Assembly (NCBI GenBank): GCA_029260855.1
Contig: JAJDCK010000002.1
Coordinates: forward strand, 1-58,132
Length of the DNA stretch: 58,132 nucleotides
Direction: 5' to 3'
Source of the DNA: Candidatus Saccharimonadota bacterium
GTDB lineage: Bacteria > Patescibacteriota > Saccharimonadia > Saccharimonadales > OFTM59
Position 1 is the stretch's first letter; the number at the start of each line of letters is the position of its first letter. This document shows, one piece after another, positions 23,917 to 28,187 of the stretch. Position numbers and translations under genes: made by a program. The notes beneath the pieces are model-generated. The model did not search any database. It saw nothing but the letters and a program-made list of their open reading frames with translations, and was not told the DNA's origin.

Positions 23917-25116
23917 TTATCTTTGTAAAAGTTCTAGGGCTTTGTCCTTTTGTGGGTCGCGATGGGCTGCATAGTCGTCGTTGGTGCGAGCAATCTTTTC
24001 GTCAGGCTCTATGCCTTCTTCGTCAATATTTTTACCGCTTGGGGTATACCAGCGCGCAATGGTTACTTTCAGAACTGTGTTGTCTTTGAAGTTTACTAGT
24101 TGCTGTACGCTGCCTTTACCGAAAGTAGTTTCACCAAGCAAACGCGCCAAGCCGTGATCTTTTAATGCACCTGCGGTAATCTCGCTAGCACTGGCGCTGC
24201 CTTCGTTAATAAGCACGATTGTTGGCGTACCGTTTAATATAGCTCCGGCATTTGCCCGAAACGTCTTGATTGTTTTACCGCCCCGTTTTTCTTCTAGTAC
24301 TGTTTCGCCTCTGTTGACCCACACTGCAGATAAATCTACTGAAGCGTCTAAGAGTCCGCCGGGATTATTACGGACATCCAGAATCACCCCCTTGACTGCT
24401 TTTTGTTTGAAGTCATTTGCTGCAGCCCGCGCCAGCTCGGCAGTGTCTTCGCCGAACCTACTGATTTTCATATAGCCGATGTTACCACTTAATATTTCTG
24501 AGGTTACACTAGGTATATTTATTTGTGCGCGAGTAATCTTAAACTCCAGTTCAGACGCCTGCCCTTCACGAATGATTGTCAGCGTGACCTTTGTGCCTTC
24601 CGGGCCACGGATCTTCTTGACCGCTTCTGAAACCGAAAGATCCAGCGCATTTTCGCCATCAATTTTAGTAATTATATCTTTTGCCCTCAACCCTGCTTTT
24701 TCGGCTGGAAATCCAGCGATTGGAGCAATTATGACTATGACTTCGTCTTCCTTGCTTAGCTCCGCGCCGATACCAGTAAAACTGCCTGTCAGTTGTTCGT
24801 CGAAGTCAGCAGATTCCTTGGCATCGAGATACTCTGTGTATGGATCTCCCGCGGCTTGAGCCAAGCCCTCTTTAAGCCCATCCAATAGGTCGTCAGCACT
24901 TAATTCTCCATCGTAGTTAGTGCGCAATGAATCATAGACTTGTTCAACCGACGCATAGTCCAGGTTTTCGGGCAAGTCGTTTTGCGAGGCTTGGTGGCGA
25001 CTTCTTAGGCTATTTGTTACCAGCCCTGAACTACCCGCTACATATCCAATATAAAATATCAAACAAGCTATGGCCAACCCGACTACAGGTTTAGAGAATA
25101 ATTCAAACTTTCGCAC
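23917..25116 (-). CDS. ctpA: Carboxy-terminal processing protease, S41 family with PDZ
   Basis: N-terminal TM, DPYTEYL, GIGAEL (PDZ), LDVRNNPGGLL, GSASASEI, TFGKGSVQ. Confidence 0.93.
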   Translation of the reverse strand: MRKFELFSKPVVGLAIACLIFYIGYVAGSSGLVTNSLRSRHQASQNDLPENLDYASVEQVYDSLRTNYDGELSADDLLDGLKEGLAQAAGDPYTEYLDAKESADFDEQLTGSFTGIGAELSKEDEVIVIIAPIAGFPAEKAGLRAKDIITKIDGENALDLSVSEAVKKIRGPEGTKVTLTIIREGQASELEFKITRAQINIPSVTSEILSGNIGYMKISRFGEDTAELARAAANDFKQKAVKGVILDVRNNPGGLLDASVDLSAVWVNRGETVLEEKRGGKTIKTFRANAGAILNGTPTIVLINEGSASASEITAGALKDHGLARLLGETTFGKGSVQQLVNFKDNTVLKVTIARWYTPSGKNIDEEGIEPDEKIARTNDDYAAHRDPQKDKALELLQR

Positions 25117-25231: not shown

Positions 25232-26398
25232 CTAATAGGTTGAGTAGTTGCAGTGTGAATAACCCGAGCTAGGTGGAATCATATGAGCGTAAACACTAAA
25301 CGTACCGTCATTGTGCTGGATAACGACTGCGTAACCATATGCATTGGTACGATTAAAAAATGATGAGTCAGCCGAACATCCTCGTGAAATTATTTGGCCG
25401 TCAGCGACCGCTTTGACAGGCAGGCCTGCACCGCCGAAATCTATGCCAGGATGACGATCTGAGAGATATACCGGGTTATAGACGTTATACTGTTGCGTAA
25501 TCCTTACAGGGGTAACAGGATATATCCACCCGCCACCTTCAAGCTTAGAGTTAGGGTTAATCAACCCGCCGCCAGAGTTCCTTGCCTCTAAATGCAGGTG
25601 CGCGCCATCCGAGAAGCCCGTGTTACCCACGGTGCCTATTACATCGCCTGAGCTGACTGGGCCAAGGCTAACAAACACGCCACCCGCAAGACGTCTAGCA
25701 AGGGCGTTTTGGGCTGCTATTAATTCATTAATCTTCTTGTTGTTCTCTTTTATTTGGGAGTTGAAGGCCGCCTGTTCAGCTTGATTTAAATTAAGTAGTT
25801 TGTTCTGCTCTGCCCTTTGAGCGCCTATCTCTTGTTCAAGTTCTTTGTCTTCTTTGATAAGCTGTTCAATTTGTTCTCGCTGCTGCCTAAGCTGTAGTCT
25901 TAGAGCTGTGATCTTATCTACCTGGTCCTTTATCTTGTTCCTCACGACTTCGCGGTACTGCTGCTTGTCCACAAACTGACTTAGGTCCTTACTTGTTGCC
26001 AGCATTTCAATCATGCTTATTTGACCTTCTGTATACATGGCGCGTATGCTCTGCCCGAGAACATCTTTTTGTCTGACCAGTTCAATTTCAGCAAGTCTGA
26101 TCTCTTCTCTCAGCGCATTACTCTTGTTCTCGTTCTCGCGAATCTGAGCCTGTAATTGATTGATTCTGTCCTGAAGCTTATTTATGGCAGACTGTAGATC
26201 GCTCGCCCTTATGCGCAAAGCATCTACCAGAGCGTGGGAGTGAGCGTTTTCGTCCTTTAGTTGGTTTATCTGGTTCTGGTGAGTTTGGGCGCGCGCCAAC
26301 GGCATGACTAGCGCAGCAGCAAATCCAGCCACAACAAGCAAAACTATAAACTTTCTGGTTTGGCTTAAGATAGTGTTTTTATTTTTTTGTTTTAGCAT
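25232..26398 (-). CDS. Coiled-coil murein hydrolase (EnvC/PcsB-like) with circularly permuted M23 domain
   Basis: Signal peptide, long coiled coil, ISMIEML..SKDL, then GNTGFSDGAHLHLE before HPGID and YAHM. ATG 26398 is preferred because TTGATT-17-TACTAT overlaps the 26422 start. Confidence 0.85.
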   Translation of the reverse strand: MLKQKNKNTILSQTRKFIVLLVVAGFAAALVMPLARAQTHQNQINQLKDENAHSHALVDALRIRASDLQSAINKLQDRINQLQAQIRENENKSNALREEIRLAEIELVRQKDVLGQSIRAMYTEGQISMIEMLATSKDLSQFVDKQQYREVVRNKIKDQVDKITALRLQLRQQREQIEQLIKEDKELEQEIGAQRAEQNKLLNLNQAEQAAFNSQIKENNKKINELIAAQNALARRLAGGVFVSLGPVSSGDVIGTVGNTGFSDGAHLHLEARNSGGGLINPNSKLEGGGWIYPVTPVRITQQYNVYNPVYLSDRHPGIDFGGAGLPVKAVADGQIISRGCSADSSFFNRTNAYGYAVVIQHNDGTFSVYAHMIPPSSGYSHCNYSTY

Positions 26399-26517
26399 TA
26401 GCTTCTTAATAGTACCATGCATTGACTAGTAAATCAACCCCCCAGCAGTTATAAAATAGAGTTCAATCCTGCGCTCGTCCCTGCAAATGATTTGCGGTTG
26501 AGCGAATTGCACACTGT

Positions 26518-27498
26518 TTATTTGGATGTCTTGAATTTTAGATAGCGGTGCGTGGCAATAAAGGATGACGCAGCACCAATAATTATACCTACTAGTAGCT
26601 GCAAGGTCAAAATTGACCACAAGCGCTGTGAAAAAAATTCACCTGCGTACGTTATGTCTAGCAAGCCGAAACTGCTAGTACTCAGCGTAACTTGAGGAAC
26701 CGAGAGAAGCGCCTCGCATAGGCTTACTGACACAATAGCTGCCACGACACCGTATAATATACTTTCAACAATAAATGGCCCCCTTATATACCAGGTGCTC
26801 GCCCCTAGCAAACGCATAATCTTAAGCTCTTCCCGGCGATTAAATATAGCCATCTGGATTGTGTTAAGGATAATCAGCACCGATACGATCGCAAAAACAA
26901 TTACCCCTATAATTCCGATACGCTGCAACAAACGAGTGCTATTGGTAATGTTGTCAATTGCTTCCTTCCGGTCACCAGAATACGAAGTCTCGTCAGCTTG
27001 CAGCTCTTTGATCTCAGGTTTTTCTGCGTAATCACGTATGCCGTCAATTCGGTCTACATCGTAGGGCTTTATGCGCAAGAGAGCAAAAAGCGGATTATCG
27101 GTTTGAGAGATAGCCAGCAACAGGTCTATGTCGTCGTTGTTAGCCGCCTTGTACTCTTCCAGCGCCCTTTCTTTTGATACATATTCCACCGAACGAATAT
27201 TGCCCATGTTTTTTATGTCAGAAATTAATTGATCTCTGCGCTCTTCGGTTACAGAGTCTTTGAGATATACAGAGACATCAATTTTATCTTCAATCTGTTG
27301 AATCGTATGCGCAAACGTGGCGTTAGCAATGTAAGAGAACAGTATTATGCTAAGTGTAATTATCATTACGGCCACTGCAGCTATAGATAGCGAGGCGTTT
27401 CTAATAAAATTCTGACCACCGGTCTTGATAATTCGGCCAAAAGTTATCGCCTTATGGTTCCCTTGCTTTCGGGGTTTGTTGGGCTTTTTTTTAGTCAT
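26518..27498 (-). CDS. ftsX: Cell division permease FtsX
   Basis: NFIRNASLSIAA, VSVYLKD, SKERAL, NTIQMAIFNRREELKIMRLLGAS.WYIRGPF. Confidence 0.95.
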   Translation of the reverse strand: MTKKKPNKPRKQGNHKAITFGRIIKTGGQNFIRNASLSIAAVAVMIITLSIILFSYIANATFAHTIQQIEDKIDVSVYLKDSVTEERRDQLISDIKNMGNIRSVEYVSKERALEEYKAANNDDIDLLLAISQTDNPLFALLRIKPYDVDRIDGIRDYAEKPEIKELQADETSYSGDRKEAIDNITNSTRLLQRIGIIGVIVFAIVSVLIILNTIQMAIFNRREELKIMRLLGASTWYIRGPFIVESILYGVVAAIVSVSLCEALLSVPQVTLSTSSFGLLDITYAGEFFSQRLWSILTLQLLVGIIIGAASSFIATHRYLKFKTSK

Positions 27499-28187
27499 TT
27501 TGAGTCCTCGTTGTTGTACCGAGCATTCGCGCGGTCACTGACGACCCGGCCGTCACTGATAGTAATAACTCGTCTTTTTAGTTTATTCACTATGTCTTGG
27601 TTGTGAGTGGTTAAAATAACTGTTGTTCCGTAGTGGTTGATTTTTTCTAGGATCTTAATGATTTCCCATGCGTATTTGGGGTCAAGATTTCCCGTAGGCT
27701 CATCAGCTATTAGAATTTTTGGCTGGCGCACTACAGCCCTGGCAATGGCGACACGCTGGCGCTCACCGCCCGATAGCTCGCCGGTCATGCGTTTTTCCTT
27801 GCCCTTAAGACCAACGATATCCAGGACTTTAGGTACGGTGTGTGCGATCTCACGATTACCATAGCCTACAATTTCAAGAGCAAACGATACATTCTCGAAT
27901 ACATTTTTATTAGGCAGAAGCTTGAAGTCCTGAAAAACTACGCCGATTTTACGGCGCACCAGCGGTATGTCCTTATCGCGTAGTTTGTCATAGTCCAGAC
28001 CACCAACCACTATCTTGCCACTCGTAGGCTTCTCTTCTTTTGTTAGAAGCTTTAGGAGAGTTGATTTGCCCGCACCAGAGGCCCCAACGATAATAACAAA
28101 TTCGCGGGGCTCAACGTGCAAACTGATGCGATCAAGAGCTGTGTTTGTTCGGCTATATACTTTTGTTACCCTGTCCAGTAATATCAC
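27495..28187 (-). CDS. ftsE: Cell division ATP-binding protein FtsE
   Basis: Walker A GASGAGKST, VVFQDFKLLP, LSGGERQR, ADEPTGNLDP. Upstream of ftsX. Confidence 0.96.
   Translation of the reverse strand: MILLDRVTKVYSRTNTALDRISLHVEPREFVIIVGASGAGKSTLLKLLTKEEKPTSGKIVVGGLDYDKLRDKDIPLVRRKIGVVFQDFKLLPNKNVFENVSFALEIVGYGNREIAHTVPKVLDIVGLKGKEKRMTGELSGGERQRVAIARAVVRQPKILIADEPTGNLDPKYAWEIIKILEKINHYGTTVILTTHNQDIVNKLKRRVITISDGRVVSDRANARYNNEDSK

Follow-up and report, generated by a model that had tools for sequence, protein, structure and literature searches.

The gene that directly follows ftsE and ftsX in this Saccharibacteria genome raises the question of what kind of FtsEX partner it encodes, as its product carries the motifs of an M23 peptidase in an unusual order. 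In canonical M23 peptidases HxxxD comes first, followed by YxH and then by HxH; the HxxxD motif and the second histidine of HxH provide the metal ligands, and the histidine of YxH and the first histidine of HxH are catalytic. In the window, i.e. the whole stretch of 58,132 nucleotides that was analysed, the gene is found in the following neighbourhood:

27495..28187, minus strand: ftsE, ABC ATPase of 230 aa, its stop overlapping the ftsX start (PF00005 ABC_tran, E 1.4e-37; ORF list)
26518..27498, minus strand: ftsX, 326 aa, with extracellular and permease domains (PF18075 FtsX_ECD, E 1.6e-17; PF02687 FtsX, E 4.2e-12)
26582..26610, minus strand: promoter-like site TTGACC-17-TATAAT, 11/12, in the 3' end of ftsX (consensus scan only)
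25232..26422, minus strand: peptidase gene (whole ORF), 396 aa, with signal anchor, coiled-coil stalk and circularly permuted M23 head (ORF list, Pfam, alignment, AF2)
23917..25116, minus strand: downstream neighbour, S41 C-terminal processing protease with PDZ, CtpA/CtpB-like (PF03572, E 6.7e-52; PDZ domains; CtpB_N-like)

The initial annotation had regarded the hydrolase as a partner of FtsEX, and the ORF list together with the Pfam matches agrees with this, the gene being placed directly after the ftsE-ftsX pair. The order ftsE-ftsX-hydrolase(s)-S41 is kept in the 8 relatives examined, and pyrG is also located downstream of the peptidase gene, together with the S41/PDZ protease. The near-consensus, sigma-70-like site within ftsX precedes the start codon of the peptidase by about 160 nt and could serve as an internal promoter for the peptidase gene. 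In the window and in eight comparable loci (L005-L012) the PDZ-bearing S41 protease is always the next gene after the hydrolases. In the same set the C-termini of the hydrolase heads are aromatic in both head types found, namely ...CNYSTY or ...SYGF in the circularly permuted M23 (cpM23) proteins and ...FVYF or ...FIHF in the CHAP proteins; it is a speculation that these aromatic tails are recognition signals for the adjoining S41 protease.

The N-terminus of the peptidase protein consists of a basic stretch and a hydrophobic segment, FIVLLVVAGFAAALVMPLARA, followed by approximately 200 residues of long helices:

26291..26353, minus strand: hydrophobic signal/anchor segment, residues 24-44, FIVLLVVAGFAAALVMPLARA (translation; AF2 helix 5-35 with low pLDDT)
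25682..26290, minus strand: coiled-coil stalk, residues 45-247 (AF2 secondary structure; phmmer to EnvC 8hd0_E)
25943..26041, minus strand: best-conserved stalk region (residues 128-160), located at the hairpin turn (alignment of 49 sequences; AF2)

Judged from the translation, the protein would be exported via its hydrophobic segment. According to the AF2 model the stalk is built from two long helices (76-133 and 147-210), between which a short helix (137-143) is placed, and from a third helix (214-247) that runs into the head. Residues 23-246 match EnvC (8hd0_E) in a phmmer search. In addition, the top Foldseek matches of the full model are EnvC from the V. cholerae FtsEX complex (8tzl_E), E. 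coli EnvC (6tpi_A) and M. tuberculosis RipC (8idc_E/8jia_E), but matches of the full model to the PDB are dominated by coiled coils and made through the stalk, and are thus informative for the stalk only. Within the best-conserved stalk part Y130, E139, L141 and S144 are nearly invariant among the 49 aligned sequences. By analogy to EnvC, residues 128-160 are presumed to be the FtsX-binding tip, and we infer that the peptidase binds to FtsX and is regulated in this way.

The stretch 25232-25690 (minus strand) encodes residues 245-396 and the stop codon of the 396-aa ORF, and the last 150 residues read ...GVFVSLGPVSSGDVIGTVGNTGFSDGAHLHLEARNSGGGLINPNSKLEGGG-WIYPVTPVRITQQYNVYNPVYLSDRHPGIDFGGAGLPVKAVADGQIISRGCSADSSFFNRTNAYGYAVVIQHNDGTFSVYAHMIPPSSGYSHCNYSTY, directly followed by the stop. 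The head and its motifs are arranged as follows:

25532..25681, minus strand: head, first half, residues 248-297, V..GD.IG.VGNTG.S.GAHLHLE...NP (PF01551 positions 63-91; C-terminal in a normal M23 domain)
25598..25600, minus strand: codon of H275, first half
25592..25594, minus strand: codon of H277, first half
25277..25531, minus strand: head, second half, residues 298-382, P..ITQ.Y...HPGID...AVADG...YGY.VVIQH...YAHM (PF01551 positions 2-52; N-terminal in a normal M23 domain)
25451..25453, minus strand: codon of H324, second half
25439..25441, minus strand: codon of D328, second half
25283..25285, minus strand: codon of H380, second half

All five codons were confirmed by direct reading of the DNA. 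PF01551 matches the protein with 61.7 bits (E 7.7e-17; cut-off 28.7) summed over two stretches. When the halves are scanned singly, residues 255-283 fall on profile positions 63-91 of 96 and residues 323-381 on positions 2-52, and either half alone clears the cut-off (30.6 and 38.4 bits, respectively). This split of the profile match into two out-of-order halves is what had been expected of a permuted domain. The same picture is obtained against the solved M23 peptidase 9gy1_A, where phmmer places residues 322-381 on chain positions 40-91 and residues 251-292 on positions 96-138, again out of order. As a control, the two halves were swapped in silico, which yields a single PF01551 stretch over positions 2-91 with 69.1 bits. 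The comparison was extended to 11 canonical single-domain M23 proteins from Actinomycetota, Firmicutes, a Woesebacterium, a betaproteobacterium, a Clostridium phage and a CPR paralogue: the de-permuted sequence aligns to most of them as one piece (about 1-137), and the native sequence breaks into out-of-order pieces against all of them (11/11). The head matches the M23 profile and contains all ligand and catalytic residues of the family, but not in the canonical linear order. The profile, the phmmer alignment to 9gy1_A, the de-permutation control and the 11 pairwise alignments all bear out the earlier proposal of a circular permutation. The M23 head is circularly permuted, with the motifs in the order HxH, HxxxD, YxH, and that this permutation is real and conserved we consider practically certain.

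The case that could have undone this proposal was a tandem M23 gene truncated by an assembly error, or more generally a product of misassembly, frameshift or pseudogenisation. Tandem M23-M23 proteins do exist, and the junction between the C-terminal half of their first and the N-terminal half of their second domain resembles the permuted order. However, the ORF is intact within a 58-kb contig and has normal neighbours, a copy from the same genus is 91% identical, more than 100 genomes assembled independently of one another show this architecture, and sequence conservation is strong. Furthermore, no M23 remnants were found before or after the permuted domain by Pfam scan and DNA reading, including the 115-nt spacer between the peptidase gene and the next gene. 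Because the architecture is conserved, we reject an artefact or decay product and leave it next to no probability.

Indeed, a word-indexed protein search yielded 48 protein clusters of 363-424 aa which cover both halves in the permuted order, and identity to the query ranges from 25 to 91% across the aligned homologues. Among the 49 sequences, G259, G263, G266, T268, G269, S271, G273, H275, L276, H277, E279 and P290 are invariant in the first half, as are H324, G326, D328, G342, G348, H370 and H380 in the second. All zinc and catalytic residues are thus present, in line with the initial annotation, and H275, H277, H324, D328 and H380 are each invariant.

For an estimate of the distribution, a cpM23 profile of 146 positions (A3) was built from the permuted domain only. 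Where the surveyed genomes contain canonical M23 genes, A3 matches these as two pieces in reverse order (e.g. G010:C13), so that the profile tells the two orders apart. A3 is matched as one co-linear piece (about 1-135) in approximately 52 of the 301 genomes sampled from the host's order and in 56 of 401 genomes across the phylum (E <= 1e-13), the ORFs being nearly always about 380-410 aa long. At an equal threshold, no intact co-linear match was found in 401 genomes of the phylum of a Firmicutes reference. Three cpM23 proteins from other classes were read by eye and are permuted, ending directly after YGHM or YAHL.

Several candidates were discarded on inspection. Co-linear-looking matches in Streptomyces, Nocardioides, Firmicutes, Duganella and Woesebacteria are joined out-of-order HSPs of canonical M23 domains, and gp15 of the Clostridium phage PhiS63, which seemed co-linear, was found to be canonical. 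A coiled-coil cpM23 protein is also encoded in a 1.1-Mb MAG labelled as uncultured Gammaproteobacteria (L019, CAZTFB010000002.1); this label is probably wrong and the genome likely that of a CPR bacterium.

The chain of the window's protein terminates 16 residues past YAHM, and this end differs between lineages:

25235..25276, minus strand: C-terminal tail, residues 383-396, IPPSSGYSHCNYSTY, lineage-specific (alignment)
25250..25252, minus strand: Cys391 (alignment)
25376..25378, minus strand: Cys349, in an insertion after RG (alignment)

In Saccharibacteria cpM23 proteins the conserved tail SGGPxACNYNTYY carries Cys391. Both cysteines are present in 47 of the 49 sequences, both are missing in one, and one has Cys349 alone; the tail and both cysteines are missing from the cpM23 proteins of other CPR classes (three examples read). 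Because the two residues co-occur, a disulfide between Cys349 and Cys391 that pins the new C-terminus is likely.

Whether the two halves can form one domain was addressed with AF2. The full model, made from the 49-sequence alignment, has a pLDDT of 85-95 over the head, and a head-only model reaches a pLDDT of 90.1 and a pTM of 0.86. The predicted strands of the head are found at the sites expected for M23, i.e. at VIGTVG, HLHLEAR, ITQ, GID, PVK, GQIISRGC, YAVVIQH and FSVYAHMI. No M23 structure was among the top 50 Foldseek matches of the head model in the PDB. Against viral models, canonical phage M23 domains cover half of the head model (71-79 columns, rmsd 1.8-2.1 A, TMq 0.40-0.43), and such a half-length superposition is expected for a permutant because the aligner is sequential. 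Since the model is compact and confident, the linker between the halves is short and the ligands of both halves are jointly invariant, we infer that both halves would form one M23-like domain with a single zinc site.

The halves might also come together between chains, with the HxH half of one chain pairing with the HxxxD half of another, so that dimerisation on FtsEX would make the active sites. Permutants and split domains can indeed swap, and an FtsEX-coupled precedent is known in PcsB, which functions as a dimer with the heads inserted into the partner's stalk. AF2, however, gives one compact single-chain domain, and the short linker between the halves has a conserved length, roughly that of the normal N- and C-terminal leads added together, arguing against a domain-swapped dimer, which we regard as quite improbable.

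Among the viral models, a co-linear superposition on the permuted head is obtained for three cyanophage virion proteins (Foldseek, about 150 columns, TMq 0.53-0.57). In one of these phages, Synechococcus phage P60, the C-terminal 160 aa of gp33 (L108:25297-25779) contain GSTGPHLD, which resembles the C-terminal half of M23, then GVDF...AFVHG, which resembles the N-terminal half, and then end. The C-terminus of gp33 may be a divergent permuted M23-like domain beside a phage tail lysozyme domain; sequence similarity between gp33 and the permuted head is non-significant.

The next question is whether the head cleaves peptidoglycan itself. The LytM head of E. coli EnvC is devoid of metal ligands and catalytically dead, and acts by activating the Amidase_3 enzymes AmiA and AmiB. 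An EnvC-type role, in which the permuted head would bind and activate another hydrolase without cleaving on its own, would fit the EnvC-like stalk and the position of the gene after ftsEX. In addition, some LytM factors with intact ligands also work as regulators. On the other hand, the five metal and catalytic residues missing from E. coli EnvC are invariant across the family, and no match to Amidase_3 was found in the host genome (0.79 Mb, 97.7% complete), compared with 8 of 14 control genomes that have one. Moreover, the same stalk carries a catalytic CHAP head in sister genomes. On these grounds, i.e. the invariant catalytic residues, the missing Amidase_3 and the catalytic nature of the alternative heads, the permuted head is probably an active endopeptidase, and an activator of the EnvC type appears unlikely. 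Elsewhere in the host genome, canonical-order M23 was found only at G000:C3:33792-34088, on another contig and within a 754-aa ORF; three CHAP ORFs are present away from the ftsEX locus, and the search for a second homologue of the stalk was negative. Among named relatives, those nearest to the host genome are Saccharibacteria/Saccharimonadales MAGs.

In many genomes of the host's order the homologous stalk bears CHAP in place of the permuted M23 domain. In the sister genus the CHAP-bearing stalk is 54% identical over residues 1-249. Both heads are found in tandem in one genome (G098), two others (G014 and G020) have two CHAP copies each, and the window's genus has the permuted M23 only. In another CPR class (L098:748-3168, genome G522) ftsX is followed by a 376-aa coiled-coil cpM23 protein and then by a 412-aa coiled-coil canonical M23 paralogue; a single locus thus combines both M23 topologies, borne by related stalks. 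In a quick maximum-likelihood tree of 58 stalks the head type changes at least 10 times, and 6 changes are forced by well-supported branches alone, a count that is to be taken as soft since the composition of coiled coils is biased and the tree has several long branches. The window's protein is placed in a clade with 98% support that comprises four cpM23 and two CHAP proteins, and in genome G007 the stalks of two tandem paralogues, a CHAP and a cpM23 protein, are sisters. Judged from these sequences, the stalks have either exchanged their heads or been homogenised within a genome, and the system is modular either way.

As to the origin of the permuted domain, an exhaustive profile search of 1.84 billion representatives was informative, as it yielded two groups of matches in addition to canonical M23. 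About 50 of the best 150 matches are C-terminal cpM23 domains matched in one stretch, in proteins of 360-430 aa, and many others match the cpM23 profile in three stretches. Four of the matches with three or four stretches were read (P0142, P0147, P0137 and P0138) and are tandem canonical M23-M23 proteins. In these the C-terminal half of domain 1 together with the N-terminal half of domain 2 mimics the permuted order, and one stretch of the cpM23 profile spans the junction. The permutant probably goes back to an M23 domain that was duplicated in tandem and then lost its outer halves, and tandem M23-M23 proteins are plausible precursors, being the intermediates expected on a route of duplication and truncation. 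Tandem proteins of this kind also yield false co-linear matches to a cpM23 profile.

Taken as a whole, the gene's product would be, with reasonable though not full confidence from sequence and model, an active FtsEX-gated peptidoglycan endopeptidase with a single zinc site. After export, the stalk, which is homologous to those of EnvC, PcsB and RipC, would dock on the extracellular domain of FtsX via its conserved hairpin tip. The head begins with a hairpin and the HxH segment (H275, H277), continues with the HxxxD...YxH segment (H324, D328, H380) and reaches the chain end soon after; only about 12-17 residues join both segments, which would fold into one M23-like domain. Zinc would be bound by H324, D328 and H277, and H275 and H380 would be the catalytic residues. 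ATP turnover by FtsE, transmitted through FtsX and the stalk, would free or position the head so that peptide cross-links are cut during division. The downstream S41 protease would probably govern the turnover of the peptidase.

By sequence, the stalk enters at the hairpin before the HxH strand and the chain leaves just past the YxH histidine, which points to the active-site side of the fold and not to the opposite face as suggested earlier. It is conceivable, and we put it forward as a tentative idea only, that the permutation is a functional rewiring rather than a neutral accident: the stalk attachment would have been moved from the remote N-terminal strand to the HxH hairpin and the chain end to a position after the YxH histidine, FtsEX would move the last stalk helix and thereby control the zinc site by mechanical gating, and the cpM23, canonical M23 and CHAP heads repeatedly exchanged on one stalk in CPR bacteria would be interchangeable but differently wired FtsEX effectors.

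Compared with known systems, the protein resembles EnvC of E. coli and V. cholerae (6tpi, 8tzl, 8hd0) in its ftsEX-adjacent gene, its secreted coiled-coil hairpin stalk and its M23/LytM-type head. It differs in that the EnvC head is in canonical order, without ligands and an activator of Amidase_3 enzymes, whereas here the head is permuted, has all ligands and is found in a genome without Amidase_3. The NCBIfam EnvC model NF008644 reaches 13.3 bits against a cut-off of 270, and other equivalog models also stay far below their cut-offs. The architecture and the catalytic residues are shared with proteins that combine a coiled coil with an active canonical M23 domain (Emergencia, Ihubacter and Selenomonadaceae; L023, L027, L035 and L071; the CPR paralogue at L098), but in those proteins M23 runs HxxxD, YxH, HxH, and the native sequence from the window aligns to them as two out-of-order pieces. 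PcsB of S. pneumoniae, CwlO of B. subtilis and RipC of M. tuberculosis (8idc, 8jia) likewise consist of an FtsEX-coupled stalk and a catalytically competent head, competence of the permuted head being predicted from its residues; their heads are however CHAP or NlpC/P60 cysteine peptidases and not zinc M23 domains. In the same Saccharibacteria order the homologous stalk bears a CHAP head at the equivalent locus. Tandem M23-M23 proteins (P0142, P0147, P0137, P0138) share the order of C-half and then N-half at their domain junction, but both of their domains are complete, giving three profile stretches, and their N-terminal parts are different, e.g. a BlaR1-like membrane domain in P0137.

Natural circular permutation within a cell-wall peptidase superfamily has a counterpart in the permuted NlpC/P60 families (YaeF/poxvirus G6R, LRAT-like), which are mentioned in a review (PMC6403190). 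Topologies related by circular permutation have also been described for the hybrid barrel-sandwich (HABAS) fold, which includes M23 (PMC11515920). Neither source, however, describes a permutation inside the M23 family, and full-text literature searches yielded no description of a permuted M23/LytM peptidase. In the source annotations the cpM23 homologues are named M23 family, MepM/NlpD or EnvC. This has consequences for annotation: pipelines that are blind to motif order give cpM23 the usual label 'M23 family' or 'EnvC', and a structure search with a sequential aligner can overlook it.

M23/LytM peptidases such as lysostaphin, LytM, ShyA and EnvC have a central place in the remodelling of the cell wall and in the design of enzybiotics, and a natural and widespread permutant shows that the M23 fold tolerates new termini beside its active site. 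In the CPR/Patescibacteria, whose cell division is poorly understood, the permuted M23 head is a lineage trait, and the use of one stalk for a permuted M23, a canonical M23 or a CHAP head in related genomes constitutes a natural experiment on how FtsEX transfers force or conformation to its effector.
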